The notes under the pieces: generated by a model
Told to the model about the DNA's origin: nothing
The model's database searches: none
Seen by the model: the letters and a program-made list of their open reading frames with translations, nothing else
Shown here: piece after piece, positions 1,597 to 52,355 of the stretch
Layout: every line of letters begins with the position of its first letter
How positions within the stretch are numbered: the first letter of the stretch is position 1
From: Calditrichota bacterium
GTDB taxonomy: Bacteria > Calditrichota > Calditrichia > RBG-13-44-9 > J042
Reading direction: 5' to 3'
Length of the DNA: 64,000 nucleotides
Assembly (NCBI GenBank): GCA_013150955.1
Contig: JAADJD010000038.1
Coordinates: 92,057-156,056, forward strand
Program-made: the position numbers and the translations under genes

Positions 1597-1768
1597 GCGC
1601 CTATTTTGCGAAAAATCTCTTCCTAAAGCAACTGCATTCGACTTTCTCCCTGGAACGGAATGGGGCCGGATTCCGGGGACAGCCATCCCTCTTCAGGATA
1701 ACAGGAGAAACCGGTCGAGATTGACAGATTACTCATCCACCTTCACAATAAATCCAAATTCTGTTTTA

Positions 1769-1934
1769 ACCCAGATTTTATGGTCACCTACGAATGACAC
1801 GAATTCACACAAATAAACCAATAAAATACATTGGATTATATCTGGATGAAAATGGGTTCCGGGATAGGGCAATAATTATGTTGATATTTTTTGGATGGAT
1901 GCGCGGGCTTTGTGGTTTCATGCATTATCCGGGT
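1769..1934 (+). mobile_element. ~167-bp inverted-repeat (MITE-like) element, copy 1 (diverged, subfamily B)
   Basis: Begins ACCCAGATT..CTACGAATGACACGAAT, core ATCTGGATGAAAAT, ends TGCATTATCCGGGT; flanked by TTA on both sides. Confidence 0.75.
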
Positions 1935-2000
1935 TTAAGGCTGGCCAGGATTTTTCAACGAGTCGGCGGGAAAAGGTGAATGGGGAGAAAAAACCCTTTA

Positions 2001-2293
2001 TCCCAGATTATGCAATAGCCTACGAATGACACGAATAAATACGAACAAAAATAATAAAATGCATTTGATTCTATCTGGATGAAAATGTTTCCAGGATATA
2101 TTCGCTATTTTGTTGATTTATTTTGAACCCAAATTACGCTTTAGACCACGAATTGCACGAATTAACACAAATAAAAACAATAAAATCCATTGATTTAGAT
2201 CTGGATGAAAATTCGCTTAGAGGTTTATTCGTGATTTTATTGATATTTTTTGTGTTCATTCGCGTGATTCGCGGTTTAACGCATTGTTTGTGT
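2001..2293 (+). mobile_element. MITE-like element: truncated copy (2001-2126) directly followed by a full copy (2127-2293)
   Basis: Two consecutive matches to the element consensus, junction TGA|ACCC. The right flank TTA (2294-2296) is the stop codon of the DUF4175-like gene. Confidence 0.8.
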
Positions 2294-5200
2294 TTATCGC
2301 GGTTGTGCTTTTTGTCGCACCAGTGCTTCGTAATATTGGCGAATCAGTTGCTGATATTCCCAGGAATAACCTTCTTCCAGCGATCTGAGCATTTCCTTGC
2401 GCAGCAGATCCTCTCTGTATATCTGCTCTTTTTGCAACTCCGGTGGCGATTTGACCAGCGGAGCTTTTTCCCATTCCGCCTTTCGCTTCCTGGAATATTC
2501 TTTTTCGCGGATGGATTTCTGGGCATCCAGCAGCCGGGACAGGATCCGTTCCTGCCGTTCAATCACCTTCCGATCCAATTTTTTCCGCCGCAATTCCTTA
2601 ACCACCTCCTCCATTTCCTGAGCCAGATTGTCCAGCCGGCCCAGCACATCCCCGCGATGTTGGCCGGACGTTTCCATCAATCTTTCCAGGGAACGGCGAA
2701 TCATTTCCTGTTGAGCGGCCAATCGCGCCAGCGCTTCATCGCTCAACTGCAACCGCCCGCTCTGCATTTGCTGAAACAGGCTCATGGTCTGCTGGTTCAA
2801 TTGCCCCTGTTGCCCGGCCATCTGTTGTAATTGTTTTAAAAATTCCTCGAAACCCGATGCGGAACTGGCCTGAGCCAGTTGCTGCATGGCGCTGCGCATG
2901 GATAAAATGGCCTGATTTAAATTGGCCATCACTTCCTTCTGGGCATGGGCGGCAGAACGGGGATTCCGCTCTTCCAGTCGCCGCAGGGATTGCCCGATGT
3001 TCAGCATCATGTTGCGCAGGATGCTGTTAAGCTGGGGAGACAGGAAAAAGGTCTTATTTCCGATCTGGATCAATTGCTCAATCATATGGCGAACATTCTC
3101 GCGAATCTGTGACTGACGACGGGCAATGTCGGTAATTCGTGGCGAGGCCATGTCGATTTTGCGGGACTGCTGCATGAGTTTTTCCTGACGGAAGGACGTT
3201 TGCAACATTTCCTCGGTAACCTTGCGCATGGCCTGCAGCAGCTGTTCCTTCTGTTCGGTCACCATTTGCTCGCGGGTCTGTTGCATCATACTCTGAAGGG
3301 TTTCCAGACGCGATTGAATTTGCTGCCCCGTTTGTCCCGCCTGGTGCTGTTGCCCCGCTTGAATTTGCTGCCTCATGCTATCCATCCGCGCACCCACACG
3401 CTGCTCCCGCAAAAACTGCTGCGCTTTCTCCAGCTCCCGGGACACCGAGGCCATTTCCTGCTGAAACGTTTGTTTGGTTTTCTCCAGCTTTTGCTCCAGA
3501 AAATCCAGCTCCTTGCGCAAACTCCCTTCCTGGTTGGCCAGCTGTTGCCGTTCCTGTGGCGACAATGACTTTTCCGACAATTTGCGATTAATCTCCTTTT
3601 GTTTTTCCCGGAGCTTCTCGGCCAGATTCACCAGCTCATCCATCATGCGTTCCATCTGCACCTGCTTAAACAATTCATAGGTGCGCTCCACCCGGCGCTC
3701 GAACTCTTCCAGTGAAAACTGGAAATTCTCCAGCGCTTTTTTGATCTTTCGGGGATCCATCTTCTCCAGGGCTTCCTGAAGCTTTTCCATGGCCTTTTGC
3801 AGCTCCGGAGTGGCCAATTCCTGGAACATCTTCTGCAATTCGAAGAATTTTTCCAGGGTTTCGGGACTTAGCAGCTGCTGTTCATCCAGCTGGCGAACCG
3901 TTTCTTCAATCTTCTTTTGAATTTCATCCAGTTTCTTCTGCAGCTGGCGATGTTGTTCCAGTTTTTCCTCCAGTGCCTTCCGCTGTTCCCAGGTCAATTC
4001 TTTCTGCCGCTTAATTTCACGCGCGATTTCTTCCAGCTTCTTCTTCAACTCCCGCTGCTCTTCCACCACTTCCCGGGTCTCTTCCAATCGATCGGTCAAA
4101 GCCGTTTCGCTTTCTTCCAGGATATCGATCAGCGATGGCAGTCGAATCACAAACGTTCGCGATTTCCCCACGCCCGGCCCGGAAACGGTATTATTGTCCC
4201 ACACCTCAGCGAAATATTCGATGTAATCATCCGGCACCAGGTAAAAATTGGTGAGATCCCAGTGGAACTGGCTCAGCGCCTGTTGATCACTGATGGGCTG
4301 AAACGGCACCTCCAGTGAAAATTGACTGGTGTCCCCCGTGGAACCCGCCCGGATGACCTGCCCCTTTATCCACAGCTTCTGAAAGCCAAAGTCGTCCTGC
4401 AACTTTATCCGAACCGGCACCACCAGTTCGTCACCCAGATCCACATCCTGACCGGGCTGAAGGATTTCCACCGTGGGTGGTTCATCCGGCAGCGCAAAGA
4501 CGGCATGCTGCACCGGCTGGTAGTTGGGAATGCTGTCCACATCCACCACGCGGATCTGATACTGATCGTTCCGCCAGATGGAGAAATGGCCTTTGGCCCG
4601 GTTGCCCAGCGGCGTTAAATCCACCCGCGTGGAATCCTGAAAAAGCAAATAGGCCTCCCGCAGGGGTTTGTTGGCCTCGATTTCTACTTCCACCCGCGTA
4701 CCGATCAAGGCGTAAATTTCCCCATTGTTGGCCTCCAGCAATTCCGGGGACTGCCCGGTGTAGGCCGGGGGAATTAACTTAATTTGCAGGTTGCGGATAA
4801 AGGGTCGCTCCCGCACTTCCACAATGCCCACCTCACTGCGGGCCACCCGCCCCTTAAAAGGCGCTACTTCCAGGCTCCCCTCGAACCAATAGCGAAAATC
4901 TTCCATGACATGGGGAATTTCGTAGCGGAAGGTACTACCGGTGTGCCCGGATAACTCCATGCGTTCCTGCACGGTCGCTTCCCCATTGGGAGCGGTCATT
5001 TCGGTGACAAACCAGAGGCGATCCGGTACCGTCCCCTCGATGCGCCCTTCCAGCACCACCGGATCGTTCTTCAACACCTGGATGTCTCCTGTCAGATTGA
5101 TTAACCGAAACGGGAGAGCCGGTTCGAAGGATTCGCCAGGGAAAATGACCCGTAAAAAAGCAGTTTGAATGCTTCCAGGAAAAAGAAAGAGCAGCACCAG

Positions 5201-5713
5201 AAACAGCAGGCCTGAAAGCAGGATTTTCCGCACATCCCGCGTCAATGCGCCAAACCGAATGCCATCCGAAAATGCCGCGTCTCGAAACCGTCGATACAAT
5301 TGCTGCAAGGACGCCAGACGGATAACCGGATCGGTGTCCGATGCCCGGCCTTCGTAGATCTGGAGAAAGTCAATTAACGCATCCTGAATATCCGGCCGGT
5401 GTTTACCCACCTCGCGGGCCGTTCGAATGATTTCTTCATGTTCGGGAAATAAACAGAGTTTCAATGGCGAGAACAGCCGCCAGAAAAAGTACACCAGCGC
5501 AAAGCCAATCCCCAGTCCCCAGAAACCCCAGCGGATCGCAGAAGGCAGGTCAAAAAGGAGCTCGATAAAGATGAATCCCAGAAAGGCCAGCAAAACATAC
5601 AGCGCTCCCGTTAAGAAGCGCTGAAGAAACATAAAAAGGTACTTTTTCCGCGTGGTGACGAAAAGTTTATGATAGGTTTCCTGATAAATCCGATCGATCC
5701 GGTCATTCTGCAT
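2294..5713 (-). CDS. DUF4175-like membrane-anchored coiled-coil protein (1139 aa)
   Basis: N-terminal TM helices, Ig-like middle (PDEPPTVEILQPG, DDFG, YFAEVWDNNTVSGP) and a long Q/E-rich coiled coil ending ILSRLLDAQKSIRE...YYEAL. Confidence 0.75.
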   Translation of the reverse strand: MQNDRIDRIYQETYHKLFVTTRKKYLFMFLQRFLTGALYVLLAFLGFIFIELLFDLPSAIRWGFWGLGIGFALVYFFWRLFSPLKLCLFPEHEEIIRTAREVGKHRPDIQDALIDFLQIYEGRASDTDPVIRLASLQQLYRRFRDAAFSDGIRFGALTRDVRKILLSGLLFLVLLFLFPGSIQTAFLRVIFPGESFEPALPFRLINLTGDIQVLKNDPVVLEGRIEGTVPDRLWFVTEMTAPNGEATVQERMELSGHTGSTFRYEIPHVMEDFRYWFEGSLEVAPFKGRVARSEVGIVEVRERPFIRNLQIKLIPPAYTGQSPELLEANNGEIYALIGTRVEVEIEANKPLREAYLLFQDSTRVDLTPLGNRAKGHFSIWRNDQYQIRVVDVDSIPNYQPVQHAVFALPDEPPTVEILQPGQDVDLGDELVVPVRIKLQDDFGFQKLWIKGQVIRAGSTGDTSQFSLEVPFQPISDQQALSQFHWDLTNFYLVPDDYIEYFAEVWDNNTVSGPGVGKSRTFVIRLPSLIDILEESETALTDRLEETREVVEEQRELKKKLEEIAREIKRQKELTWEQRKALEEKLEQHRQLQKKLDEIQKKIEETVRQLDEQQLLSPETLEKFFELQKMFQELATPELQKAMEKLQEALEKMDPRKIKKALENFQFSLEEFERRVERTYELFKQVQMERMMDELVNLAEKLREKQKEINRKLSEKSLSPQERQQLANQEGSLRKELDFLEQKLEKTKQTFQQEMASVSRELEKAQQFLREQRVGARMDSMRQQIQAGQQHQAGQTGQQIQSRLETLQSMMQQTREQMVTEQKEQLLQAMRKVTEEMLQTSFRQEKLMQQSRKIDMASPRITDIARRQSQIRENVRHMIEQLIQIGNKTFFLSPQLNSILRNMMLNIGQSLRRLEERNPRSAAHAQKEVMANLNQAILSMRSAMQQLAQASSASGFEEFLKQLQQMAGQQGQLNQQTMSLFQQMQSGRLQLSDEALARLAAQQEMIRRSLERLMETSGQHRGDVLGRLDNLAQEMEEVVKELRRKKLDRKVIERQERILSRLLDAQKSIREKEYSRKRKAEWEKAPLVKSPPELQKEQIYREDLLRKEMLRSLEEGYSWEYQQLIRQYYEALVRQKAQPR

Positions 5714-5734
5714 AACATCGGTACCTGTCGTAGA

Positions 5735-6397
5735 TTAATATAATAATGCGTAAAGGATGATGTTCGTTCCCATTTTCAGAGCCTGGCGACGAATTTCCGG
5801 GGGATCCCCGTGAATATCGGGATCTTCGCATCCATCGCTGATGTCCGTATTAAAACTGTAAAATGCGACCATGCGGCCTTCGTAAAACAGGCCGTAGCCA
5901 TGCGGTGGCCCACCCGCATGTTTGTGAACCTTGGGCAGTCCATTAGGAAAATTGAAATACACATGATAAATTGGATGCGAAAACGGCAGTTCCACCCACT
6001 CGGCTTCCGGGAACACTTTTTTCATCTCCCGACGAAAATAAGGATCCATTCCATAATCATCGTCCGCCCATAAAAATCCGCCCCCAATCAAGTACTGGCG
6101 CAACCGCTGCACTTCCTCATCGGTAAAGCGAATGTTTCCATGGCCGGCAATATACGCAATGGGATATTTAAAAAAATTCTCATCGGTGATCTTCATGGAA
6201 ACTTCCCGTTCAGCGGTGACCACATTGGTCTGTTCCCGCATGAATCGGAACAAATTCACAAACGTGGTGCGATTGCCGTACCAATCTCCACCCCCGCCAT
6301 ACTGAATACGCACCACGGTCACCGGCATTTGCGCCGACGTCTGCCCAATCAAACACAGCATAAATACAATGATGAATAATCGGAAGGCTGGCGTCAT
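5735..6397 (-). CDS. DUF4159 domain protein
   Basis: Signal peptide; YGGGGDWY, GHGNIRF, LRQYLIGGGFLWADDDYGMD, HPIYH, ALKMGTNIILYAL are typical of this family. Confidence 0.85.
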   Translation of the reverse strand: MTPAFRLFIIVFMLCLIGQTSAQMPVTVVRIQYGGGGDWYGNRTTFVNLFRFMREQTNVVTAEREVSMKITDENFFKYPIAYIAGHGNIRFTDEEVQRLRQYLIGGGFLWADDDYGMDPYFRREMKKVFPEAEWVELPFSHPIYHVYFNFPNGLPKVHKHAGGPPHGYGLFYEGRMVAFYSFNTDISDGCEDPDIHGDPPEIRRQALKMGTNIILYALLY

Positions 6398-6407
6398 GTT
6401 GGCCTGA

Positions 6408-6926
6408 TCATAAAAACAGTTTGTATCCCACGATCACGATCATGGTCAGGGTGCCGATGGCCTTCACGGTCAGTGGCCCCAACCGGCCGATTAATGCGCC
6501 CAGCATCACCTGCTTTGCTTGGCGCAAATTATTCTTCTTGATTAGCACCTCAAACACGATCGTCCCCACAATCAAACCAATCACCCCCCCGGTGATGGTA
6601 CCCAGCACGGGAGAAGCAAACGCGCCGCTGATGGCACCCAATAGCCCACCGGCAATGGCACCAATGACCAGAATACGATTGGCGCTGTATCCTCTTTTCC
6701 CGAAGGCAATGACGATGTATTCCAGCAATTCGATAAGCAGGGCAATCAAAATGAGGGAGATAATAAAGGAAAATTTATAGCGTTCAAAACGCGTTGCCAG
6801 ACCATACCACAACGCATCGATGACAATAATAAAATTTCCCGGAATGCTTAAAAATATCCCCACCAGACTGAATGCCAGAATTACCAAAAAAATAATTTCC
6901 AGTGTTCCAACCATACCACAACCCAA
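6408..6926 (-). CDS. DUF456-family membrane protein
   Basis: Highly hydrophobic, IPG motif near the N-terminus, glycine-rich GAIAGGLLG/GGVIG helices; the true start may be ATG at 6914. Confidence 0.7.
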   Translation of the reverse strand: MGCGMVGTLEIIFLVILAFSLVGIFLSIPGNFIIVIDALWYGLATRFERYKFSFIISLILIALLIELLEYIVIAFGKRGYSANRILVIGAIAGGLLGAISGAFASPVLGTITGGVIGLIVGTIVFEVLIKKNNLRQAKQVMLGALIGRLGPLTVKAIGTLTMIVIVGYKLFL

Positions 6927-7037: not shown

Positions 7038-7853
7038 TTAAACGCTGGCTTCCTGCACATTTTGCAACGAATACCGGGATCGATGCCGCAGGGCAAAATT
7101 CTGCCGTTTTTGACGGGTATCCAGATTGAGCTTTTTTAGCAGACTCCGCACCTTAAACCAACCGACTTTTTCATTTCCGAATTCCGGCGAGCGCAACCGC
7201 CGATTGATCCGAAACGCCCCGTAATCCGGATAATTGGATACAATATATTTGATTTTTTCTTCCAGGGGTAACCGCTTCAGGCTCACCGGTGCACTGCTGG
7301 TTTTGGGCTGAGTTTCGGAAGTTGTCAGCGGTTGTTCGCTTACGGGCCGGGTTGCCGTTGGTTGATCCACACTGACCGGGCGTTCCGGTTGGTGGGTGGT
7401 TTCACTGGCCTGGGCGACTTCCTCGGCCCTGGCCGCCTGAGCGCGCTCAAAAGCAGCCGCACTGGGCTCGCTGGCCGCCTCGGCCTGCTCAAATTTCATC
7501 ACCGCACCTTCCACCGTATCGTAAACATCCAGAATGTGATGAAATTCCAGCAATTCAAAAATTTCATAAACATCGGGGATCATCCCCACCAATTTTAAAT
7601 CCCCGTTATTTTCCCGAATGGTCTTGATTTCGCTGATAAAAATACCCCACCCCGCACTGCTGATATAGTCCACATTGCTCAGATCAATGATAATATTGTA
7701 TCTCCCCTGCTTTAACAGACTATTCAGGGCACGCTCTACCTCCGAAGATGTCGTGGTGTCGATATATCCGCCCACCTTAATCACCGAAATCTGATTGCGA
7801 CTCCCCGCCGTATGCGTGGAAACTTGGATGCCTTCCATCAAACCCTCCATCAA
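7038..7853 (-). CDS. Anti-sigma-factor antagonist (STAS, RsbV/SpoIIAA type) with Pro/Thr/Ser linker and C-terminal HTH-like domain
   Basis: VIKVGGYID, IIIDLSNVDYISSAGWGIF (phospho-Ser region), GDLKLVGM..VYEIFELL; C-terminal YPDYGAFRINRRL...KVRSLLKKLNL. Confidence 0.9.
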   Translation of the reverse strand: MMEGLMEGIQVSTHTAGSRNQISVIKVGGYIDTTTSSEVERALNSLLKQGRYNIIIDLSNVDYISSAGWGIFISEIKTIRENNGDLKLVGMIPDVYEIFELLEFHHILDVYDTVEGAVMKFEQAEAASEPSAAAFERAQAARAEEVAQASETTHQPERPVSVDQPTATRPVSEQPLTTSETQPKTSSAPVSLKRLPLEEKIKYIVSNYPDYGAFRINRRLRSPEFGNEKVGWFKVRSLLKKLNLDTRQKRQNFALRHRSRYSLQNVQEASV

Positions 7854-7864
7854 TTAATAAAAGG

Positions 7865-10624
7865 TCAGCGATTTTCCTCTTTATCCTGTTGTTCTACATT
7901 ATCATCGGCAACGACATCATTTCCAATAACTTCTTCATCGATTTTGTCCCTTTCGGGCTCATTTCCGTCGGAGTCGGTCACCGGTGTTTCCACCGGTTTT
8001 TCCTCATCCTGCGCATTTTCTTCCGTCAACTGTGCCTTGCGCCTTTCCTCTTCTTCGGAAATTTGCTCCGCAGTGATCAATCGCTTTCCACTCACGGAAA
8101 TAATTTTCTCTTTCGATCGTTTGCCGGCACCTGCACTGGGAATGTAATGATAGGTGGTTTCAAACATATCTTCGCTACGGAACCCAACCATGACCTCGCC
8201 ATCCAGCGTCAACAGCGGGGTACCCGGCGGTTTCAACCGCTGCTTACCGCCCCGCTTCACAAATTGAATCCGCTGCTGCTTGGTGTTCAATTTTGCCCGT
8301 TTTAATTCCTCGTAAATCAATTTCGGCGGTACCTTGGTATAGCCGTATTTCTCTGTATTCAACATGTCACTGATCTTTTTTGGGCCAAATTCAGGATGCT
8401 GCCGGATAATATCATATATTTTGGTCTTTATTTCAATACTTAAATGCTTCAACCCCAGATTAGTATAGCCGTGCAACATTTCCCGCAAATAGGTGTAGCC
8501 GCCCTTCTCGTAAATTTTCTTGTAACGGTAATAGGTCGATGGGGAGATTCCCAGTTCCCGACAGGCTTCCACCAGTGTTTTTCCGTTGGTTCCCTTTTTC
8601 CGCTCAAACAATTCCTTGAACAGATTTACTTTGATATCCACCGCTTCCATATTTTCTTTGATGGCCACCAGGGTGATGTCGTCATTCTGCTCATACCCGC
8701 CGGTAAAATTCAAAATCTCGTTCTTAATGCTTTTCACGAAGTCCACCACATCCAGGTGACCATACTTGCGAATGGCGGCCAGGAACCGTTCTTCCCCGAA
8801 GAGTTCCCGTTTGGCATTCATGGCTTCGGTAATTCCATCGGTGTAGAGCACCAGAATGTCGTCCGGATGCAGCCGAATTCGATCGGCCTGGATTTTTTCG
8901 GCAAACAGATTGATGTCCGGCAGGGTAATTCCCACCGGAAAGCCAGATGGATTCAAATAGTAGGTTTCCTTGGTCTTTCCGCGGAACAGGATCATGGGGT
9001 TATGCCCGGCACTGGCAAAGTAGACCATGCGTTCCCGGGAATCCAGGATGACATAGAACATGGTCACAAACATGCCCTTCTTAATATCCTCAGTCACAAA
9101 GGCGTTAACCCTGGTGAGCACGTCGGCTGGATTTTTATTCCCCCGCGCTTCCAGCCGCAGGGCGGTGCGGATCATGGTCATCACCAGGGAACCGGGAACG
9201 CCTTTTCCGGACACATCAGCCACACAAATGCCGATGCTCTGATCGTCCACCTCCACAAAATCAAACAGATCCCCACCCACTTCTTTGGCGGCCTGATAGT
9301 AGGACGCAATGTCGTATCCGATGACTTCCGGGAAGTCATCCGGCAACAGCATTTGTTGAATTTCCTGGGCCACCTGCAATTCCTTTTGCAGGCGCTGTTG
9401 CTCCACCAGATTGATCTGCGCTTCCCGGAACTTGCTGGTCATCTCATTAAAGGCCTGGGCAATCTCGCCCAGCTCGTCACTGGCGTCAATGTCAATCTCG
9501 TCTTCATCCACCGTACCTTCACCCACCTGACGCACCCACTCGGCCAATTTGTGGAAAGGTTCGGTAATCAGGCTAATGAGCAGGAAGAGGCCAATATAGC
9601 CAGCCACCAGAAAGAGTAAGAGATACAGGATCAGGTTGCGCCGGGCAATGGCAATCTGTTTCAGAATGTATGCCTCTTCCACCCACAGCTGGTAGTACCC
9701 CGCTGGCTCGTCTTCTAGTCCCGCCAGAGCAATGGGGGCCACGAAATAGAAAATGGCCGAATCCCCCACCGCGCGCCGATAGACTTCCACATTCTCCATT
9801 CGGGTGACCAGCTGGGCATGTTTCCAGTCCACTTTCTGGCGGATCATCTCCACCTGAATGGGATACACCGCCACCACCTGCGAATCCCGATCGGTGATTA
9901 CGGCCATGCGGATCATTTCGGGCTTGCTTTCCTTGACCGATTTGGCATTCTGGAACAGAGGAATATCGGTACCCCCTTCCAGCGCCACCGTCAGTGGCTC
10001 GTAGGAGATTTCCGCCAGATTTTGAACCATGGAACTGGCCTGGGAAAAGGTCAATTCGTAAATGTCGGTATTCAAACGGGCGTTAAACACAAAGAAGGCA
10101 ATGATGATGATGATGGTCAAACCCACCGAGCCGACCAGGGAGAATTTGGTGCGCAGGGTAAGCGAATCCCAGATGTCCAGCAACCGGGTTTTTTCCACTT
10201 CATCGCGCACCTTGGTGAGGCGCAATTCGTTGCCCCGGCTGGTTACATTGTAACGGATGTCGTCCATCAACTTGCGCATCATGAAGATGCCCAGACCGCC
10301 CTTTTTCCCGATCTGGACGTATTTCTGGAGATCGGGATTTTTCACCTGCCGGGGGTCAAAACTGATGCCCTGATCGATGATCACCATGGTCAGGCTGCGG
10401 CGGCGGATGATGGCCCGGATGGTGATCTTGCCATCCTTAATATCGCGATAACCGTGGCGGATGATGTTCGTGCAGGCTTCGTCGACAACCAGTTTAAAGG
10501 AATTGATAATCTTATCGGGGAACTTGTACTTTTTGCCAATGAACTCGATAAAATCCCGCACCTCGCGCAGATAACTCATCTGGGCGGGGATCTGAATTTC
10601 TTCTTTAGAAACGTTCTTAAACAT
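7865..10624 (-). CDS. Membrane protein: RsbW-type Ser kinase + TM/periplasmic domain/TM + HAMP + SpoIIE/PP2C phosphatase + HTH modules (919 aa)
   Basis: VDEACTNIIRHGY, IIDQG, GGLGIFMMRKLMD (HATPase); DELGEIAQAFNEM (HAMP); VGGDLFD, VADVSGKG, SAGHNP, YTDGITEA, NDDITLV (PP2C); EACRELGISPSTYYRY (HTH). Confidence 0.92.
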   Translation of the reverse strand: MFKNVSKEEIQIPAQMSYLREVRDFIEFIGKKYKFPDKIINSFKLVVDEACTNIIRHGYRDIKDGKITIRAIIRRRSLTMVIIDQGISFDPRQVKNPDLQKYVQIGKKGGLGIFMMRKLMDDIRYNVTSRGNELRLTKVRDEVEKTRLLDIWDSLTLRTKFSLVGSVGLTIIIIIAFFVFNARLNTDIYELTFSQASSMVQNLAEISYEPLTVALEGGTDIPLFQNAKSVKESKPEMIRMAVITDRDSQVVAVYPIQVEMIRQKVDWKHAQLVTRMENVEVYRRAVGDSAIFYFVAPIALAGLEDEPAGYYQLWVEEAYILKQIAIARRNLILYLLLFLVAGYIGLFLLISLITEPFHKLAEWVRQVGEGTVDEDEIDIDASDELGEIAQAFNEMTSKFREAQINLVEQQRLQKELQVAQEIQQMLLPDDFPEVIGYDIASYYQAAKEVGGDLFDFVEVDDQSIGICVADVSGKGVPGSLVMTMIRTALRLEARGNKNPADVLTRVNAFVTEDIKKGMFVTMFYVILDSRERMVYFASAGHNPMILFRGKTKETYYLNPSGFPVGITLPDINLFAEKIQADRIRLHPDDILVLYTDGITEAMNAKRELFGEERFLAAIRKYGHLDVVDFVKSIKNEILNFTGGYEQNDDITLVAIKENMEAVDIKVNLFKELFERKKGTNGKTLVEACRELGISPSTYYRYKKIYEKGGYTYLREMLHGYTNLGLKHLSIEIKTKIYDIIRQHPEFGPKKISDMLNTEKYGYTKVPPKLIYEELKRAKLNTKQQRIQFVKRGGKQRLKPPGTPLLTLDGEVMVGFRSEDMFETTYHYIPSAGAGKRSKEKIISVSGKRLITAEQISEEEERRKAQLTEENAQDEEKPVETPVTDSDGNEPERDKIDEEVIGNDVVADDNVEQQDKEENR

Positions 10625-10694: not shown

Positions 10695-12599
10695 TTAATT
10701 CTCTTTAGTTCTTTTAAGCAAATCTTCGGCTTTTTTTATGGCTTCCTGAATCTTCTGGTTGTATGGATATTTCCTGGCCAGCTCTCGCCACACCTCCAGT
10801 GCTTCCTGATAGCGTCCGGTCAGGAACAACTCGGTTCCCACAATATACTGCTTCTCGGCCTGCGGATCGAGCTCCTCTTCGCCTTCCCCCAGACCGCGTC
10901 GGGCGCGTTCCATGTACTGACGCAGCACTTCGTTGGCCGGATCCAGATTGAGCGCTTCCTGAAACAGTGCCAGGGCCTCCTGATACCGTCCCTGATCATA
11001 CAACTGCAGCGCCTGTTGCACATACTGTTGCACTTTCACCCGATTGGCCAGCGCATCCACTTCTCGTTTCAACTGAGGATCATCCGGGGACAGCACCAGC
11101 GCCTCGCTCAAGATGCGCAATGCTTCCGAAAGATTGCGATTCTGAAATTCCCGCCGGGCCTGGGTCACCAGACGACGCACTTCCTGGTTCAACCGACGTT
11201 TGGTGGTCTGAATGGCCTGAAGAATAATCGGGTCATCGGGAGACCGTTCCAGTGCCAGATTAAAGGCGATTAACGCTTCGTTAAATCGCTTCTGCTGCAG
11301 GTACAACTGCCCTTTTTCGAACTGCAATTCCACAAAGCGCTTGTTTTCCTTGGCCAGCTCTTTGTCTACCGCCTGGGCGATGAGCTGTTCCTGGCGAGCC
11401 TGCAGCTCGCGCTGGATCAACGTATTGGCGCTATCCAGCATGATCTTGGCCGTCTTGTTAAACGGATCTTCTGAAATGACCATCTGAAATTCGGTAGCGG
11501 CATCAAAGTACTTTTGCTGTTCAAACAATTCCTTTCCTTTGGCCAGATGCTCGGCAATGAAGCGTTGCCGTTCTTCCTCCTTGGTACGCTCCACCAATTC
11601 TTTTTCCCGCCGCCGACGTTCTTCTTCGGCCAGGCGAATCAATTCCTCGCGGGTCTTGCCCAGATTAAACGTGATAGAGAATCGATGGGTGGGCGGCCAA
11701 TCCCCCTGATAACTCAGGTTCCCGAAGGAATAATCGATCTGGACAAAAGAATAGCGCACCCCGGCGCCAAAGGCCAGATTGTTGCGATCGAACCCCACGC
11801 GAATGGTTCCCAGATCGCGGAAATTGTATTCGGTACCCATGTGAACGCGCATGGGCTCAAATTCGGACTTACTGAAATCCAGCAGCACATTCACTCGACC
11901 GCTGAGACCAACCGGGAAGGCCTTCAGGATGCCCAGCCGAAATTGTGCCGGTAGAACTTCCCGCTCCACCCCCAGCTTCAACTCCGGTTTTAGCAGATTC
12001 TGGTAATGAAACCCGATGGACAGATCCCGTAAGAAGCGATTGTCCCATCGCGGCTTGTACATGAGGCCCAGATCCAGACCGATGCCACTGGTGACCAGAT
12101 TCAAAAAGGTAAATTCCTGACGATCGATTTTGAATGTAATTCCTGTGGTAAGGTTAAAGGGCAGTTTCTTGGCGTAAGAAATGTAAAGCTCGCTATATTC
12201 GAAACGGGACACCCCTTCCTGAACGTTGAATTGATTGACCACCGGGATATCCCCCACCCCGATGCGGGCATACCCAACGCCAACCGTTCCGAATTGCAGC
12301 GTGGGATAGACAAATCCCAGGAAGTCGTACACGGCGCCTTCATAAAGGGGCGCATGCAGCAGGGAGATGGTCAGGCGCGGTACAAATTCCAGTCCCGCGG
12401 GATTCCAGAACACCGCGGCCGGGTCATCCGCCAGGGCCACGTACGCCCGACCCAATCCCAGCGCCCGCGCACTGGCACCGATGTTCATTAAACTGGTGGT
12501 GCCGGCACTGCCCTCCTGGGCCTGTATTGGCGGCACGGCTCCTGCAAGAACAACCAGCATGGCCAGTGCAAAAATGAGTGTCTTTGCCCGGTGTTTCAT
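10695..12599 (-). CDS. PorV/PorQ-family outer-membrane barrel with C-terminal coiled coil and TPR repeats (634 aa)
   Basis: Signal peptide, GASARALGLGRAYVALADDPAAVFWNPAGL, amphipathic strands ending HRFSITFNLG, then about 320 aa of TPR-like helices. Confidence 0.85.
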   Translation of the reverse strand: MKHRAKTLIFALAMLVVLAGAVPPIQAQEGSAGTTSLMNIGASARALGLGRAYVALADDPAAVFWNPAGLEFVPRLTISLLHAPLYEGAVYDFLGFVYPTLQFGTVGVGYARIGVGDIPVVNQFNVQEGVSRFEYSELYISYAKKLPFNLTTGITFKIDRQEFTFLNLVTSGIGLDLGLMYKPRWDNRFLRDLSIGFHYQNLLKPELKLGVEREVLPAQFRLGILKAFPVGLSGRVNVLLDFSKSEFEPMRVHMGTEYNFRDLGTIRVGFDRNNLAFGAGVRYSFVQIDYSFGNLSYQGDWPPTHRFSITFNLGKTREELIRLAEEERRRREKELVERTKEEERQRFIAEHLAKGKELFEQQKYFDAATEFQMVISEDPFNKTAKIMLDSANTLIQRELQARQEQLIAQAVDKELAKENKRFVELQFEKGQLYLQQKRFNEALIAFNLALERSPDDPIILQAIQTTKRRLNQEVRRLVTQARREFQNRNLSEALRILSEALVLSPDDPQLKREVDALANRVKVQQYVQQALQLYDQGRYQEALALFQEALNLDPANEVLRQYMERARRGLGEGEEELDPQAEKQYIVGTELFLTGRYQEALEVWRELARKYPYNQKIQEAIKKAEDLLKRTKEN

Positions 12600-12611: not shown

Positions 12612-15600
12612 CTATTTTATAAATGCGACCTTGGTCTTAAACATTTTGGTTTCCCCGTTCTGGTATTTCACCCGAAGCACCGCCAGGTAAACGCCATTCA
12701 ACACGCGGTAACCCCGTTCGTTGCGACCATCCCAGACGATCTTTCCGTCGTACAATCCTTTCTGCAATCCTTTTTCCTCTTTCTTCCACACCAGCTCTCC
12801 CAACAGCGTGTAAATCCGCAATTCCACATCGGCGGGACTTTCCAGGTAAAAGACGAATTTGGTGTATTCATCCCGCAACCCGAAGGGATTGGGATAATTA
12901 CCAAAACTCTTCTTGGGATCCGAAGGCACCACGGAAATCGATTGCGATTGCAGCTTGTTGTTCAACGTATCGATCGGATTGCCAATGGAATCGGTCACCT
13001 CCACGCTGTAGAAATCGCCGGCAAATTTCTGAAAGGCCACCACGCCGTCCAGTCCCACATGAAAATTCCGGTTGGGTGCATTCTGCGCAATGTCGAACAA
13101 CACCACCAGCTCGTGTTTTTCGCCGGGTAGTAGAACGTCCTGGTTCACGTTAAAAGGAACCGATGCCGGATTGGCTGTTGTATCCGTAACCGGCACATCG
13201 GCAAAGATGTCCGGGATCTGTCCAGCGGCTTTCTTTTTCAACAATTCGCGATAGTATTTCAAGCTGACCACCTTAATCCGCGAGATCATGTTGACCAGAT
13301 CGGCGTAGGGACGATTGCCTTCAGCAGGATTCCTCAGCGAGATGAGCACCTTCTTCACGTACAGCGTGTCGTCGATCTGCGGATTGCTCATGGAAAATCC
13401 GAGTACCGCTACATCTTTCTGTCCCTGCACGTAATTGGATTCGGGAATGATGTCCTCCAGTTTTTCTACGATCAACCGCTTGGGGATCATGTTCACATCA
13501 ATGACCACCCGATTGCTGTCCGGGTGCACATCGACCGGTGCATTGGTATTGGCATCCTGCGGCAACTGACCGAACGTAATGTTCATCAATGTGTTTATGT
13601 TGGAATCGGGGGCCATGAGCTTCCAGGTAATTCGGGTATCTTTATTTGCACCCAGGGAGAAAGACTTCTCGGATGTTTCGCCGGGGGCGAGCAAAATTCC
13701 ATTCAATTCAATGCGGACGCTGCCGCTGCCACTCACCGGCGCCTCGCCCGTGTTTACCACCCGCACGGACACATCAAACCGCTGCTTTTGCGACAGTCGA
13801 TACGCCCGCTGCACCCCTTCCAGTCGTAATACGGCGCGCCGCTGCACCTCGATGGGCAACATGTTGCTGGTCTGACTCAGGGCTTCGCCAGTGTTCTTTT
13901 CCACGGCGTAAGCCTGCAGGAAAAAGGGCGTCCCCTGGGTGGTTTTTAACACATCCATGACCTTAAAGACTTTAGAGCGCGCTTCGGCCATCACCGGCTT
14001 CATTTTTTCGAATCCCAGAATGCGGAGTGCATCATCTCCGGTTCTCTTGCCAAACTTTCGTGGCGGCAATTTTCCGGCGGTTGAAGATTTCCCCGTTTTT
14101 CCGGGCTTTGTGGGTTTCTGTCTGGGTTCTGGCCCTTCGTTAACAAATTTTTTACGGGGCGATTGTGCCACCATCGCCGCGGGTACGCCAGGGACGGCTC
14201 CGGAACCGGGCACAAAATCGGGTGCCAGAACGTCCCAGGTCACGGTGACCTGATCACCCCTGTCGGATACCACCTGCACACTATCGCCCAGAATGCGGAA
14301 GCCGGTGGCGGGATCAAACACCAGCGCAACCAGCCGATTTTCTGGAGCCACGCTGCCGCGAAATTCAACCTCGCCTTTCAGGCGGAAGGTTTGTCCGGTG
14401 GAAATGGTCGAATCCCTGGCCCCCTCCGGCCAATCGATGCTTAATTGGGTCACAATTAAACCGCGCTGCTCGATGACGTAAGCAAATCGCACGGTGTCGC
14501 TCACCCGTGCCACACGGGCATTTTCAAAATTGTTGTTTTCATCCCGTGCAAGGGAATCGGTGATGGCAACAATCAACGTATCGGCTCCCACGTTCGCGGT
14601 GGCCGAGACGGCTAAATGTGCCGCTCCCGAGCGGGTTTCCGGGTCAATGGCGATGTACTGCGTGGCCGGGGTGCCCAGCAGGGTCAGGCCCTGCCCCATT
14701 TGAACAATCTGCACCCGTACCGAATCGGGCACCACTCGCGCATCTCCCAGATTCCGCAACTCCACGGTCAGCAGACCGGTTTGTCCGGTGGACATCACCG
14801 TATCGCCGCTGACGCTGAGCTGCAACAACGCTTTTCGCACAACCCGAATGGGAATGCGCACCAGATTATTGACGATTGCAGCCGGTTCCAGGGTGTTCTC
14901 GTCGCGGGCCACTTCCTGGAGCTGCACCACGATGTTTTGCAAGGGCAACGGATTGTTTAACGTACGCAATGTGAGGGTGGTATCCTGAATCCCCAGTTGA
15001 ATGCTTAACGTATCCCCGGATCGATCGGCGAACTGAATGCCTGCCGGCAATTGAATGCGAATCCGGTTGCGCGAGGTGTCCAGAATACCGGCCTGCCCCA
15101 CATTCAGGGTTTGAATCTTCAACTGGAAGAGTTGATCGGTGGACAATTCTCCGTCCACCGCGCCTTCAGGGGCTGCAATGGCTGCCTGCAGCCGAATCCT
15201 GGCCCCATCCACCACGTTAACCACCAGCGTCTGCACATCGGTAATTTCTTCGAAGGTATTTTCATCCTTACCGCGATTGATAATCCGCAACGTGTCTGGC
15301 CCGCTGGGGGTTGCCGGGGTGTTGATGCGCCACACAACTTCCTGCACCACGCCCTGGGGTTCCACATCCACCCGCGTGCGACCTTCCACCGAGTAACCGG
15401 TGGGGACAATGACTTCCGCCACCCGGTCGCTGCGGGCAACCTGCCCCAGGAAGAAGATGGTGTTCTTCAACAGAAATTGCTGTCCGGTGGTCAATTCCCG
15501 ATCCACGGCCCCCACGGGGTCAATAATTTCCACAGTAGAGACTATCCGCGCAGAGGTATCTGTTCGCACCGGGATTTTCACCGTATCGATGGCCACACCG

Positions 15601-18600
15601 GCCGGCTGATTGGTGTTCACATCCAGCGGCAACTGACGCAGGTGCACCAGCAGGGTGTCGTTCAATCCCTGCGTTAAGTCCATGGCCTTCACCTTCCAGA
15701 ACCCGCTCCGGTTGGTTGGACTGATGGTCTGTACCGCATCGGGCGTTTCCGGGGTAAGCTGGTAGTTTGGCGGCAACACCAGCTCCACCTGTCCGGTCGA
15801 CCATTCACTTTCTCCTGTGGTGGAAATCCGGTAATCCACGGTAAATTCCTGCACCTGGGAGAGCGTGCTATCCGATGCCGTGGCCGAGAGCGTCAGCACC
15901 ACCGGCTGCTGGATAAACAGATTTTCCGTATTGTCTACCGGCTGTCCCACAAAAACCTGATTCCCGGTGATTCGGGAAAAGGCGCTGTCAATCGTCGCGC
16001 GGAACAGCTGCGTCTGGCTGACCGAATCGGCCCGAAACGTGTAAGTAAATTTGGTAATGCGATTGGGCAATAGCACAGGAATGGTATCGCGAATAAAGAT
16101 TTCTGCATCCTTGAAAATGGTCACATGCACCTGACTGAGGGTGTCATCACCCGAATTGGCCAGGTACAGCTCCAGCGCCACCGGCTGGCCATAATTAACA
16201 AAAGGCGGATTGGGCACCTGAGCCAGTTTCAACTGACTGACAAAGGCACTGGAAAACTGAATGATGCGTACCTGATCGGTGACGGCCCCACTGGTGAAAT
16301 TCCGCTCATCGTCTGGTTTGCGCAGGTCGTTGTATGCCCCATTCAGTCCGGCAAATGCCGGGCCCAGTGGAGCGGTATCCAGAATGTTGTATTTTCGGAT
16401 AAAGGTGACCTGTTCGCCCGGCAGAATCGTAAAAGGCAGGTTGTGCGAATTGAAGACAGTAATCCATTGATCCGTCATTTCCTGCCCGGCACTGTCCACA
16501 AACACACTATTCAGCTCATTCACCTGCGCCCCGGATGCCCCCTTGTTACTCAAATAGTAGCGCACTTCCACAAAACTCTGTCCGCGGGTCACCACCTGAG
16601 GAACGATGTCAATGGAATCCACCACCACCAGGGCTTCGGGCAAAACGGTCAACTGGTGTTGTCCGACCAGGGTATCCCCTTCAAAGGGTTGATCGTTGGG
16701 AAGCTTTCCGTGCATCACCACCTGAATGGGTAAAATGAGATTGGGAGCAAAATCGGGCGGCACCGTCTCGGTCACAAACGGCACCGTGTTTTCCCGTGGC
16801 GTCTGGGTTAGCGTCCCCCGAATGGTGATGTTCCCATCCACGTTGGCGCGGAAAACCCGAACGCCATCGGTGAATTCCAGATACGAACTGTCCGGATTCA
16901 CGATCAGATCGGTATTTCCACTGTTTTCAACGATTACCGAGAACGTGACCGTCTCACCAGGAACAATACTATCCGGTTCCAGGGATCCATTCTGATAACT
17001 GAGCAGCACACCGGATTTAATCAGGAAGGTATCCGGTAAAAGCGAGACCTTGGTCAGGGTACCGTTGTTGAAACTGATAATCGCCTTCACCGTTACCCGT
17101 CCCACACGGGCGTCATCGGGGACGTCAAACAACCACTGCAGCGTTTCGAAAGAACCTGGTGGCGTGGTATGCAGGGTATCCAGATTGTCCACCCGTCGAT
17201 TGGGTGCAAACAGAATCTCTCCGTTGTCCACATAACGGAAATCCAGCATGGTGCCCTGCTCATCGATCTTTAGCGGCGGGCCGGCGTTGGTAACGCGCAC
17301 AAACACGTCCACATTCTTTTGGCCGGGCACCACCTGATCCGGATTCACCTGCACATCGGTGATCGAAACATTGCCACCGATGTTGATCACCACCGTATTC
17401 AAATTCTCGGCGTAGGGAATTTCATTCGAGGTGCCTCGAATCCGGGTCACCGGCACGTACTCCCCGGTCTGGGAAAGCACCAGCGGCTGAAAGACCAGTA
17501 CCGTGGTTTCCGCCGGTGCCACGGTCATATCGGTGGCCAGAGGATCGATGTAGGTAATCATCGCCGGTTCGGAAGGGATTTCCAGATGCGTCTGATTATT
17601 CAGGTGCACGATGCTTCCGCCGGCATTCACCACGGTCACGGTGAATTGCACCGTGTCCCCATCGTCAAAAACGGTGTAGGGGCCCAGTTCCAGAAATTCA
17701 AAATCCGCGGGATTGACCACGGTTAAATAGGCCAGGGAGTCGGCCGTGGTGTTCAGCGAGGCCTCGGAATACACATCCTGAGCCGTCAGGCGCGTGCCCG
17801 CATAAATCAACGTATCCTGATAGGTGTCCAGCGAAATGCTATTGGGCACGTCCACCGAATAGGTCAAATCCACCGTATTGCCGCCGGCAACGGTCACCGG
17901 AAGCAACGGATTCTGCAGCGTCTGTGTGAAAGGATACGACACATAAAACTGCAGGGTATTGCTAAAAATCTCGGCTCCGGCTTCCCCGGTATTTCGGATG
18001 CGCACCACATATTGCACGTCTTCCTGGCCCACATGTGCCGTATCGGGGGCAATGGCAATGGATTCTACCACCAGACGGGCCTGCTGGACAACCTGCAGGT
18101 CGTCGCTGGTGCTGGCATCCTCAAACAGCAGTGCCTGCTGATCGTTTTCATCCCGGTAATGCACCCGCGCGGTGAACGTGTACCGATTGCTGGCCGCGGT
18201 GGGTTTTACCTCTATGCGATAGTTCAGGCTGCTGGAAGCTCCATTGGGAAGCGTCACCGGCAAACTGAATAATCGCACAATGTTAAAATTACTGGTGTCG
18301 AAAGCCACGTTATTGGCCAGAATTTCAATGGAATCGATGCGTGCAGTGGCGGTGGGATTGCCCTGCCCCTGATTCTTGATGGTAAAGGCCAGCAGCACGT
18401 TCGTCTGTCCCGTGCTGGCGGTGTCCTGATCCACCGCAAAGCTGGTGTAGGCAAGTACCGGACGCTGTTGCACCGTCCAGGACGCGGTGGTCTGCGCTGC
18501 CGGTGCCTGAACCCGACTTCCAGAGACGGCATTCCGCCCGGAAGCAGCCGCATCGATGACATCCGCACCCAGTGTGGCCGTGGTGGAAACATCCACATAC

Positions 18601-31670: not shown

Positions 31671-31702
31671 GCATATTCGAGAAAGGCAGGGTCAGAGTTG
31701 AG

Positions 31703-31869
31703 CCCCAAATCATGCAGTGAACCACGAATCACGCGAATGAATTCGAAAAAAATTAACAAAATAGCGAATATATCCGGGAAAATATTTTCATCCAGATAGA
31801 ATCAAGTGCATTTTGTTATTTTTATTGGTGTTAATTCGTGTCATTCGTAGGCTAATGCATAATCTGGGT
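31703..31869 (-). mobile_element. MITE-like element, full copy (subfamily A)
   Basis: Reverse-complement match to the consensus; ends TGCATAATCTGGGT|TTA. Confidence 0.85.
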
Positions 31870-31923
31870 TTATAAGAAGAATCTCTCAAAAGGGAATGTT
31901 TTCCTCCGACAATTTTCCAATGT

Positions 31924-40217: not shown

Positions 40218-40258
40218 AGGCTCTAAACCGGGAACACGATTTTCATCCTGCAAAATAA

Positions 40259-40540
40259 ACCCAGATTATGCATTCGCCTACGAATGACACGAATGAACAT
40301 TAATAAAACAAATAAACCCAAATAAAGCGTTAAACCACGAATCACGCGAATGAATTCTAAAATAATCAATAAAAAAGCGAATATATCCGGGAAAGCATTT
40401 TCATCCAGATAGAATCAAGTGCATTTTATTATTTTTATTGGTATTCATTCGTGTAATTCGTGGTTCTAATGCATAATCTGGGTTTATTATTTTTATTGGT
40501 GTTAATTCGTGTAATTCGTAGGATAATGCATAATCTGGGT
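40259..40540. mobile_element. Nested MITE-like cluster: left-arm stub (+), full copy (-, 40316-40483), left-arm stub (-)
   Basis: Four element termini (ACCC at 40259 and 40316, GGGT ending 40483 and 40540), each next to TAA or TTA; outer flanks TAA/TAA. Confidence 0.85.
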
Positions 40541-46680: not shown

Positions 46681-46832
46681 ATCTCCCTTTATTTTTTTTG
46701 GCTAAAAATTAATGATTCATTGGTGATGCGAAAATCTGAATTTATCTTTTTCGCCGCCCTTACCTGCCTCCCAAGATGGTTCAATTTTGACTTTGCAGGG
46801 AATCGGGGGTTACCCAAATTCATACCAAATAA

Positions 46833-48272: not shown

Positions 48273-48350
48273 AATAGGTTTAGCCACAATAAAAAATTTT
48301 TGACACTCAAACCATTGAAAAATCAAGTTAAAACATTAACTATTTGTTTA

Positions 48351-52350: not shown

Positions 52351-52355
52351 TAAAA

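Follow-up and report, generated by a model that had tools for sequence, protein, structure and literature searches.

Most descriptions of partner-switching systems place a sigma factor at the end of the pathway, and the outputs of non-canonical ones such as SypA are, to our knowledge, long-standing unknowns. The locus described here lies in a 64,000-nucleotide stretch of a Calditrichota genome (the window; contig JAADJD010000038.1, positions 92,057 to 156,056) and raises the question of whether such an output can be built into the switch proteins themselves. A transmembrane kinase/phosphatase and the STAS protein encoded beside it share a small basic module, which an earlier note on this DNA had taken for a domesticated transposase DNA-binding domain.

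The enzyme and two STAS proteins

The genes and domains considered here are as follows (window coordinates).

10695..12599, minus strand: PorV/PorQ-family outer-membrane protein fused to TPR repeats (NCBIfam PorV_fam 126.7 bits, cut-off 90; TPR)
7865..10624, minus strand: enzyme gene, 919 aa (ORF and translation; Pfam HATPase_c_2 1e-28, HAMP 1.3e-9, SpoIIE 5.3e-51)
10211..10591, minus strand: RsbW/SpoIIAB-type serine kinase domain, aa 12-138 (Pfam HATPase_c_2 E=1e-28; NCBIfam RsbW E=6e-22, under its cut-off)
9566..10144, minus strand: two transmembrane (TM) segments, aa 161-181 and 331-353 (Kyte-Doolittle 19-aa windows >1.8)
8657..9247, minus strand: PP2C/SpoIIE phosphatase domain, aa 460-656 (Pfam SpoIIE E=5.3e-51)
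8459..8590, minus strand: HTH1, aa 679-722, first half of a bipartite transposase-type unit (Pfam HTH_23, HTH_28, HTH_Tnp_1, E ~1e-5)
8255..8458, minus strand: HTH_21-like module of the enzyme, aa 723-790 (BLASTP to the STAS tail; IS481 model; AF2 pLDDT 86-96)
8162..8254, minus strand: post-module motif RGGKxRLKPPGTPLLTLDG, aa 791-821 (invariant columns in the enzyme-tail alignment; 13/13 diverse orthologues)
7868..8074, minus strand: acidic C-terminal tail, aa 851-919, net charge -18, poorly conserved (alignment and charge)
7038..7838, minus strand: STAS1 gene, 266 aa from MEGIQ, plus stop (orthologue alignment; an identical 266-aa protein is on record)
7503..7799, minus strand: STAS domain with the invariant YISSAGWG serines (Pfam STAS E=2.2e-20; pLDDT >90)
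7278..7478, minus strand: hypervariable disordered linker (alignment; pLDDT 47-68; dN/dS 0.73)
7074..7277, minus strand: HTH_21-like module of STAS1, aa 193-260 of the 271-aa frame (four helices; pLDDT ~95; charge ~+12)

The enzyme runs in the order kinase, TM, sensor, TM, HAMP, PP2C, HTH1, module, conserved motif and acidic tail. Its HATPase_c_2 and SpoIIE matches both exceed the Pfam cut-offs, placing a GHKL anti-sigma-type kinase and a PP2C phosphatase in one polypeptide. The Pfam scan detected neither a Response_reg (REC) nor a STAS domain in the enzyme, the center of which is occupied by TM, sensor, TM and HAMP; the ~150-aa sensor between the TM segments is probably periplasmic. The earlier note had the protein end with the module, but another 129 residues (aa 791-919) come after it: an invariant K-x-PGTPLLTLDG motif, a basic stretch and the acidic tail, the last of which is replaced by C-terminal TPR repeats in longer orthologues. 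We note that a DNA-binding tail on a membrane-anchored enzyme would be mechanistically awkward.

STAS1 begins 27 nt past the enzyme stop codon. The upstream TTG start taken earlier (271-aa frame) is disfavored by the orthologues, which support MEGIQ and a 266-aa protein. The protein consists of the STAS domain, the disordered linker and a second HTH half only (HTH_21-like). Residues S60 and S61 are invariant among 28 sequences, and from its position in the motif we take the conserved serine to be the equivalent of SpoIIAA Ser58. On the upstream side, a PorV-TPR homologue adjoins the enzyme gene in 60 of 63 related loci. The gap between the two is 10-60 nt in most loci, which places the enzyme promoter elsewhere.

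The tail recurs on a second STAS paralogue, STAS2, which is encoded within an XrtA/PEP-CTERM exopolysaccharide operon. It is flanked by priming sugar transferase/XrtA deacetylase genes on one side and Wza/Wzc-like genes on the other, an arrangement also found in two other families. A small kinase gene lies 4 kb from STAS2, and the genome encodes about five HATPase_c_2 proteins over the cut-off and seven SpoIIE proteins. Because other kinases and PP2C proteins are thus present, action of the enzyme on STAS2 is an assumption drawn from the common module alone.

Homology and fold of the tails

Both tail peptides quoted in the earlier note are found in the translations at the positions given, and the enzyme and STAS1 tails align with each other as it had proposed (BLASTP E=3e-8, 32% identity over 69 aa). 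We find the ~65-aa basic module to be homologous among all three proteins (enzyme, STAS1 and STAS2). The tails also display the pattern YG..[KR]I...L....G..V....V...L...L, which we take to be a transposase motif.

Transposase and HTH profiles of the kind expected from the earlier reading match the enzyme tail. Matches to Pfam HTH_23, HTH_28 and HTH_Tnp_1 span enzyme aa 680-713, with a weak match to HTH_32, and the NCBIfam IS481 transposase model (NF033577) matches enzyme aa 679-784 over positions 11-112 of its 284 (E=1e-8). This non-catalytic N-terminus of the model matches 17/17 orthologous enzyme tails tested (best 3.5e-14), with scores that fall far short of 224 bits, the cut-off for a whole transposase, since the tails correspond to its N-terminus only. 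The STAS1 tail matches positions 129-197 of an IS3 transposase model (NCBIfam, E=3e-4) and, weakly, HTH_21 (PF13276; E=0.013-0.15), reaching 16.2 bits (E=0.013) where the gathering threshold is 28.1 bits. HTH_21 is matched by 19 of 37 modules at E<=1 (best 2e-6). Metagenomes contain rve-less proteins with two to five modules in tandem, and the tandem proteins P0005 and P0138, also metagenomic, clear the HTH_21 threshold with 82 and 138 bits. A word-index search with the STAS tail, an insensitive method, returned only two near-identical proteins, and a profile search was used instead.

Of the bipartite transposase unit, the enzyme retains both the HTH_28-like and the HTH_21-like half (HTH1 and module, aa 679-790, window 8255-8590). 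The two STAS proteins retain the HTH_21-like half only, on a disordered linker, which for STAS1 corrects the earlier note. HTH1 is confined to the enzyme and is kept in 13/13 diverse orthologues aligned. The enzyme tail has two helical units in the same order as in IS481/IS3-family transposases (NF033577, NF033516; HTH_28, HTH_23, HTH_21, HTH_32). Unlike those transposases, the tails have no rve core, occupy a fixed position and are single-copy orthologues in two phyla. In line with the earlier note, no rve/DDE core was found in either protein at E<=1 (Pfam), and PF00665 (rve) is unmatched anywhere in the 99.7%-complete assembly. In a profile search of 1.84 billion proteins, none of the best 150 was domain-typed as a transposase, rve having been scanned in 14 of those. 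At the level of sequence homology, we consider it shown that the tail module descends from an IS481/IS3-type transposase, namely from the DNA-binding region at its non-catalytic N-terminus.

Net charge of the module averages about +9, with a pI of about 10, in all three classes, compared with -9 for the STAS domain. In structure, the enzyme tail model comes closest to the end-binding domains I-beta/I-gamma of MuA (PDB 4fcy, 2ezl; Z 6.0, 122 residues aligned), alongside DNA binders of the TnsB, Tc3, Pax paired and Myb/wHTH kinds, all of these matches being weak (Z 4.6-6.0, identity 10-21%) and within a range common for helical domains. With MuA, TnsB, Tc3 and Pax paired the enzyme tail shares two tethered helical units. 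The Foldseek comparison with the PDB suggested in the earlier note gave nothing at E<=1e-3 (top matches E>=0.17), and a PDB-sequence profile search with the enzyme-tail alignment gave a single marginal, TetR-like match (E=0.22). Look-alikes in an ESM Atlas structure search include IS481/rve transposases; the ESM Atlas feature search yielded no usable match. The basic charge and the transposase/Myb/wHTH-like fold of the models fit DNA binding without proving it. In the enzyme, the third helix contains an invariant acidic YEEL, unusual for a recognition helix. Residues common to all three classes are mostly core P, G, I and L with one K and one R, and the alignment shows no evident common recognition surface, which speaks against DNA binding.

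Relation to known systems

CapS is a STAS-wHTH repressor in which phosphorylation of the STAS serine dissociates the STAS dimer and releases the protein from DNA; its partner CapK is a soluble, ssDNA-activated HTH-STAS-GHKL protein that is not known to have a phosphatase, and the pair acts in phage defence in Enterobacter roggenkampii and Vibrio cholerae (Chambers et al., EMBO J 2026, PMC13373217). As in CapS, a STAS domain with a conserved phosphorylatable serine precedes an HTH-type domain, here with predicted DNA binding, in one polypeptide; as in CapK, a GHKL anti-sigma-type kinase bears an HTH, and the output would be direct, without a sigma factor (PMC13373217). The differences are several. 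In CapS a MarR/ArsR-like wHTH is packed immediately behind the STAS domain, whereas here a transposase-derived HTH_21-like module follows a disordered linker of ~65 aa. Unlike CapK, the enzyme spans the membrane, joins a PP2C domain to its kinase and bears a bipartite HTH in its C-terminal part, and the setting is exopolysaccharide and the cell surface, with two presumed STAS substrates. The STAS profile (E<=0.01) matched nine solved structures, all STAS-only and none with a chain named CapS, in a copy of the PDB that may not include CapS.

SypE of Vibrio fischeri is a dual serine kinase/PP2C phosphatase acting on the STAS protein SypA, in a polysaccharide locus (PMC8256260). Like SypE, the enzyme combines an RsbW-like kinase and a PP2C domain in one polypeptide, which here would act on STAS2; like SypA, which is not known to target a sigma factor, STAS2 is encoded inside a polysaccharide locus. 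SypE is soluble with a central receiver domain, in place of the TM, sensor, TM and HAMP found here, SypA is STAS-only, and neither is known to carry HTH modules.

The kind of system is thus a known one (CapK/CapS as STAS-wHTH, SypE/SypA as dual enzyme), of which the transposase-derived tails are a variant. A literature search retrieved no paper on STAS or PP2C proteins fused to a transposase-type HTH, or on this system in Calditrichota; the words 'sigma' and 'SpoIIE' occur nowhere in the main text of the Caldithrix abyssi genome paper.

Candidate roles of the tails

We favor, at roughly an even chance, the reading that the locus encodes a conserved sigma-independent partner-switching circuit in which the HTH_21-like tails would serve as the DNA-binding output, set by the phosphorylation state of STAS. 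The sensor would set the balance of the enzyme's kinase and phosphatase activities, and this balance the phosphorylation of the invariant serine on STAS1 and STAS2. The phospho-state would alter self- or partner association of the STAS domains and so change how avidly the tails bind DNA, as in CapS, by analogy with which phosphorylation-controlled DNA binding becomes more plausible here. The ~65-aa linker, unlike the compact CapS, makes a fixed-spacing dimer mechanism unlikely. STAS2 would control the exopolysaccharide operon and STAS1 a different target, which may be the operon it belongs to, together with the PorV-TPR gene and a giant surface protein; the bipartite HTH would place the enzyme at the same or related DNA, or act as a second input. 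The conserved operon itself contains no sigma factor gene.

The candidate output domain is built into the proteins, as a basic transposase-derived HTH module on both presumed STAS substrates and the enzyme, near-universal in two poorly studied phyla and with one copy inside an exopolysaccharide operon. Capture of transposase DNA-binding domains is well known in eukaryotes. If the tails bind DNA, they would be a clear bacterial example of it, would carry the CapS principle beyond phage-defence islands into the core regulation of envelope and biofilm, and would, together with their sites, provide a testable handle on partner-switch targets. A bolder and rather improbable extension has the bipartite enzyme HTH holding specific chromosomal sites at the membrane, the two STAS-HTH proteins, with their cognate half-module, competing for or receiving these sites according to phospho-state, and surface sensing (PorV-TPR, giant adhesin) passing to exopolysaccharide genes without a sigma factor; an ancient transposase capture would then have created a new transcription-factor class.

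The common module might instead be a protein-protein contact, homotypic or heterotypic, that tethers both STAS proteins to the enzyme, increases their local concentration and confers substrate specificity amid the many partner-switch components of the genome, with no DNA involved. We regard this as unlikely. The module is present on two of the 11 STAS proteins and one of the seven PP2C proteins of the genome, as would suit a specificity tag; all three partners have it, the STAS proteins bear it on a long flexible linker, and longer orthologues add TPR protein-interaction repeats behind the enzyme tail. However, all classes are basic (+9), which disfavors like-with-like contact unless an acidic partner bridges it, and the module surfaces differ among classes. 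The top structural match (MuA I-beta/I-gamma) and what the unit originally does in transposases, binding DNA ends, also weigh against docking. A complex prediction for the enzyme tail with STAS1 residues 186-266 gave no answer (scores of 0.00 in two runs, no controls) and speaks neither for nor against binding.

Binding of some other ligand by the basic module strikes us as quite unlikely. Its partner would be RNA, the enzyme's acidic tail, the acidic linker of STAS2, membrane phospholipid or a polysaccharide-export component, with a post-transcriptional effect, as proposed for SypA, for which no target is reported (PMC8256260). Acidic segments do lie near the module (-18 at the enzyme C-terminal end, -9 in the STAS domain), and the STAS2 gene has export genes (Wza-like, Wzc-like) as neighbors, but the acidic tail and linkers vary in sequence and length, and no particular ligand is supported.

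That the tails are decaying IS remnants, or annotation or assembly artefacts, without function, as their likeness to transposase N-termini and the division of STAS and tail into separate ORFs in 3/80 loci could suggest, is refuted, as far as sequence analysis goes, by the conservation of the module in 84/86 genomes of Calditrichota and in 120/121 sampled genomes of a second phylum (a count that takes in one unpublished genome, G176), by a tail dN/dS of 0.21 against 0.73 for the linker (0.06 for the STAS domain), and by many invariant columns, a confident fold and the absence of rve from the genome. The trio of enzyme, STAS1 and STAS2 is under purifying selection in nearly all genomes of the two phyla. 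An ORF combining STAS and the module lies directly 3' of the enzyme gene in 74/80 loci, and this fixed synteny argues against mobility of the module. Domestication, as first proposed from the window, is well supported by the homology to transposase N-termini, the absent catalytic core, the two-phylum conservation and the purifying selection.

Returning to the favored DNA-binding reading, the suggestion that local repeats would serve as binding probes is weakened, as the repeat is abundant in this genome alone and the module is phylum-wide. The repeat motif ACGAATNNNNCGAATKAA was rejected as a conserved target, with 886 copies here, none in the genome from the same genus and no more than 26 in any single other genome of the phylum; a lineage-specific role for the ACGAATNNNNCGAATKAA repeats is possible.

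Domain organization of the enzyme and its STAS partners

The 919-aa membrane kinase/PP2C protein (the enzyme) and the STAS gene directly after it (STAS1) carry the following features.

window 7865-10624, minus strand: enzyme gene, 919 aa (open reading frame and translation)
enzyme aa 12-138: HATPase_c_2, RsbW/SpoIIAB-type serine kinase (Pfam/NCBIfam, E=1e-28)
enzyme aa 348-398: HAMP (Pfam/NCBIfam)
enzyme aa 460-656: SpoIIE/PP2C (E=5e-51)
enzyme aa 680-713: HTH_23, HTH_28 and HTH_Tnp_1 (E about 1e-5; HTH_32 match weak)
window 8162-8254, minus strand: RGGKxRLKPPGTPLLTLDG motif, immediately after the enzyme module (alignments of orthologues)
window 7038-7853, minus strand: STAS1 open reading frame (translation)

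The translation contains the motifs that we take to be usual for active enzymes, both in the kinase domain (EACTNIIRHG, DQGISFD, GGLGIF) and in the PP2C domain (GGDLFDF, ADVSGKG, YTDG, NDDITLV). With a hydrophobic segment on either side of its ~150-aa sensor region (aa 161-181 and 331-353), the enzyme is predicted to be a transmembrane receptor whose kinase and PP2C domains are both cytoplasmic.

The peptides that an earlier note had quoted from the enzyme and STAS1 are present at the coordinates it gave, and the C-terminal tails of the two proteins are homologous, as it had proposed (BLASTP E=3e-8, 32% identity over 69 aa). The same note placed IS481-transposase-like DNA-binding modules on both proteins and had the PP2C protein end with its one. 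The enzyme contains both halves of the bipartite transposase-type unit, HTH1 and the ~65-aa HTH_21-like second half (the module), but STAS1 has only the second half, and enzyme aa 791-919 lie beyond the module. This extension comprises the invariant RGGKxRLKPPGTPLLTLDG motif, which a low-confidence model folds into a small hairpin, and then an acidic stretch (net charge -18). The motif is (near-)invariant in 17/17 close and 13/13 diverse enzyme orthologues, and all 13 diverse enzymes aligned contain HTH1, the module and K-x-PGTPLLTLDG.

STAS1 begins at MEGIQ by comparison with orthologues, which gives a protein of 266 aa, and includes a STAS domain (E=2e-20). The genome contains one further module copy, at the C-terminal end of STAS2 (287 aa), another STAS paralogue, which has an acidic linker and ends in ...KRYRYYRSC. 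The enzyme, STAS1 and STAS2 are the only three module carriers in a genome that encodes 11 STAS, about 5 clear HATPase_c_2 and 7 SpoIIE proteins. The linkers differ between the paralogues (acidic in STAS2, P/Q/A-rich in STAS1), and ...KRYR[YF]YRSC, with its terminal cysteine, closes 4/4 STAS2 tails examined, from three families (locus L002, 1495-1689, G000:C23; loci L035, L037 and L038).

Origin and predicted structure of the module

Enzyme aa 679-784 align with positions 11-112 of a 284-position IS481-transposase model, in its non-catalytic N-terminus (NCBIfam, E=1e-8), and 17/17 aligned enzyme tails match the N-terminal regions of IS481 and IS3 transposase models (best 3.5e-14). The STAS1 tail aligns with positions 129-197 of an IS3-transposase model (E=3e-4) and weakly with HTH_21, which is matched by 19 of 37 modules at E<=1 (best 2e-6). 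In Foldseek, TnsB and Pax paired domains occupy the top rows, at E>=0.17. As the note had stated, no rve/DDE core follows the module in the enzyme or STAS1, and none was detected across the whole 99.7%-complete assembly. Its proposal that the module was domesticated from a transposase is supported.

Among 1.84 billion representative proteins, a profile search returned only 571 matches at E<=1e-3. The best 150 of the 571 are nearly all STAS-module or kinase-HAMP-PP2C-HTH1-module proteins, either whole or fragmentary; enzyme orthologues of the long type finish in TPR repeats. Domain typing assigned none of these 150 to transposases, with rve scanned for in the 14 of them submitted to Pfam. The exceptions are STAS-module-module proteins and rve-less proteins with tandem modules, such as the metagenomic representatives P0005 (five modules) and P0138 (four to five HTH_21 units); P0118, P0139 and P0146 consist of repeated HTH_28+HTH_21 units, also without rve. 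P0069 has ten HTH_Tnp_IS630 stretches, and the metagenomic rve-less proteins span 2-10 tandem transposase-type HTH units. They may represent a separate class of transposase-derived multi-HTH proteins.

In the AlphaFold2 models of the STAS protein, a disordered linker separates the STAS domain from a four-helix tail (pLDDT about 95), both of which are modelled confidently; the enzyme module is modelled at pLDDT 86-96. In a Foldseek-independent search the Mu transpososome came top (4fcy_B residues 99-242, Z 6.0, rmsd 12.1 over 122 aligned residues), followed by MuA I-beta (Z 5.7), TnsB (4.9), Tc3 (4.6) and many Myb/SANT/wHTH DNA binders (Z 4.3-5.0). The search tool warns that Z values of this size are common for helical domains. 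Structural matches overall are weak but consistent. Structure look-alikes of the STAS tail in the ESM Atlas, which we treat as leads only, comprise its own two families and IS481/rve transposases, together with two clusters, one enzyme-like and labelled Zixiibacteriota, the other T2SSC+HTH_21. In each of the three classes the module is strongly basic, with a net charge averaging about +9 and a pI of about 10; the acidic parts are the STAS domain (-9) and the C-terminal end of the enzyme (-18).

Conservation and gene neighbourhoods

The STAS tail was matched in 84/86 genomes of the window's phylum, including 53/53 high-quality ones; the two genomes lacking a match are 52% and 67% complete. Each genome usually yields a 230-270-aa STAS protein, a 270-290-aa STAS protein and a 900-1200-aa ORF. 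When species-representative genomes were scanned for the enzyme tail, 92 relatives were confirmed and 80 of them kept; the titles of most of the 80 read Calditrichota, Calditrichia or Caldithrix, while a few bear other submitter labels. One related locus led to a second phylum, in which one public record is labelled candidate division KSB1 and the module occurs in 120/121 evenly sampled genomes (119/120 without the unpublished genome G176), mostly with three matches apiece.

The earlier note had suggested measuring dN/dS across homologues. Along the STAS1 gene (Nei-Gojobori), the ratio is 0.06 in the STAS domain, 0.73 in the linker and 0.21 in the tail, for the 21-29 pairs with dS<2, with dS near saturation and an unreliable linker alignment. 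A tree built from 37 modules unites those of the enzyme in a single clade (100/100) and those of STAS2 in a second (100/100). For the window's own family, the STAS1 tails (window 7041-7286, minus strand, compared with loci L002 and L006) fall beside the STAS2 clade, apart from other STAS1 tails, which may reflect gene conversion between paralogue tails or an artefact of the 72-column alignment.

Two genes precede the enzyme gene:

window 12612-28874, minus strand: 5420-aa ORF with Big_1 and CARDB domains
window 10695-12599, minus strand: PorV/PorQ-family outer-membrane protein fused to TPR repeats, following the 5420-aa ORF

Of 63 loci with enough upstream sequence, 60 have a homologue of the window's PorV/PorQ-TPR protein immediately before the enzyme gene, and the two therefore probably share one operon. 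A STAS+module ORF directly follows the enzyme gene in 74/80 related loci; three of the other six are truncated by the end of the contig or locus, and in the last three STAS and tail occupy separate ORFs. A stop or frameshift splits STAS from tail, or the enzyme gene, in a few genomes (loci L078, L081 and L083; L042 and L043, from genomes G045 and G041), which could stem from misassembly or from sporadic decay. Genes for DUF456 (membrane), DUF4159 and a DUF4175-like coiled-coil protein of 1139 aa lie beyond STAS1, downstream and in its orientation (window 2294-6926, minus strand).

STAS2 is located within an exopolysaccharide operon, preceded by a priming sugar transferase and then an XrtA-system polysaccharide deacetylase (TIGR03006, over cut-off), and followed by a Wza-like exporter, a Wzc-like chain-length/tyrosine-kinase protein and a FemAB-family XrtA/PEP-CTERM protein (TIGR03019, over cut-off). 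Around STAS2, genomes of two other families show this order too.

Possible output of the switch and dispersed repeats

In the mechanism we propose, the sensor enzyme, encoded after the PorV-TPR protein and the 5420-aa Big_1/CARDB surface protein, would switch between kinase and phosphatase activity; the balance would set phosphorylation of the invariant STAS serine in STAS1 and STAS2, with the tail as their output domain. We favour DNA binding by the tail, an evenly balanced call, because of the module's ancestry and charge, the tandem-module proteins and the published CapK/CapS pair. CapS is a dimeric STAS-wHTH repressor; phosphorylation of its STAS serine by an anti-sigma-type kinase, CapK, releases it from DNA, and CapK has an HTH of its own (PMC13373217). 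A DNA-binding mechanism is plausible, with this pair as its precedent. The module might instead be a docking tag that ties both STAS substrates to the sole enzyme carrying it, which we consider unlikely, or this basic module might bind another polyanion or the export machinery, which seems to us less probable again. That it is a functionless relic is highly improbable and contradicted by its conservation.

Two features, the dual kinase/phosphatase and the placement of a STAS gene in a polysaccharide locus, have parallels in SypE/SypA, the target of which is described as still unknown (PMC8256260). CapS and SypE already exemplify STAS transcription factors and dual kinase/phosphatases, respectively. 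What is new is the transposase-derived module, present on all three partners, together with a dual enzyme that spans the membrane, a flexible linker, an association with genes for exopolysaccharide and the cell surface, and near-universal retention in two phyla. Our literature search found no description of a STAS/enzyme system with a transposase-derived module.

The window also contains dispersed intergenic repeats:

window 1768-2297, 31699-31879, 40252-40547, 46829-47004, 48347-48559, 52108-52354, 52578-52790 and 62603-62773, both orientations: dispersed intergenic repeats

These span 60-175 nt around the core ACGAAT-N4-CGAAT[GT]AA, which occurs in 886 copies in the 4.07-Mb genome (reversed-pattern control, 0), 0 in the same-genus genome and <=26 in any other genome of the phylum. 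They look like a recent, lineage-specific REP/MITE-like expansion. Several coincide with window 48001-52000, a low-GC stretch (0.40, versus about 0.50-0.55 elsewhere) that may be an island.
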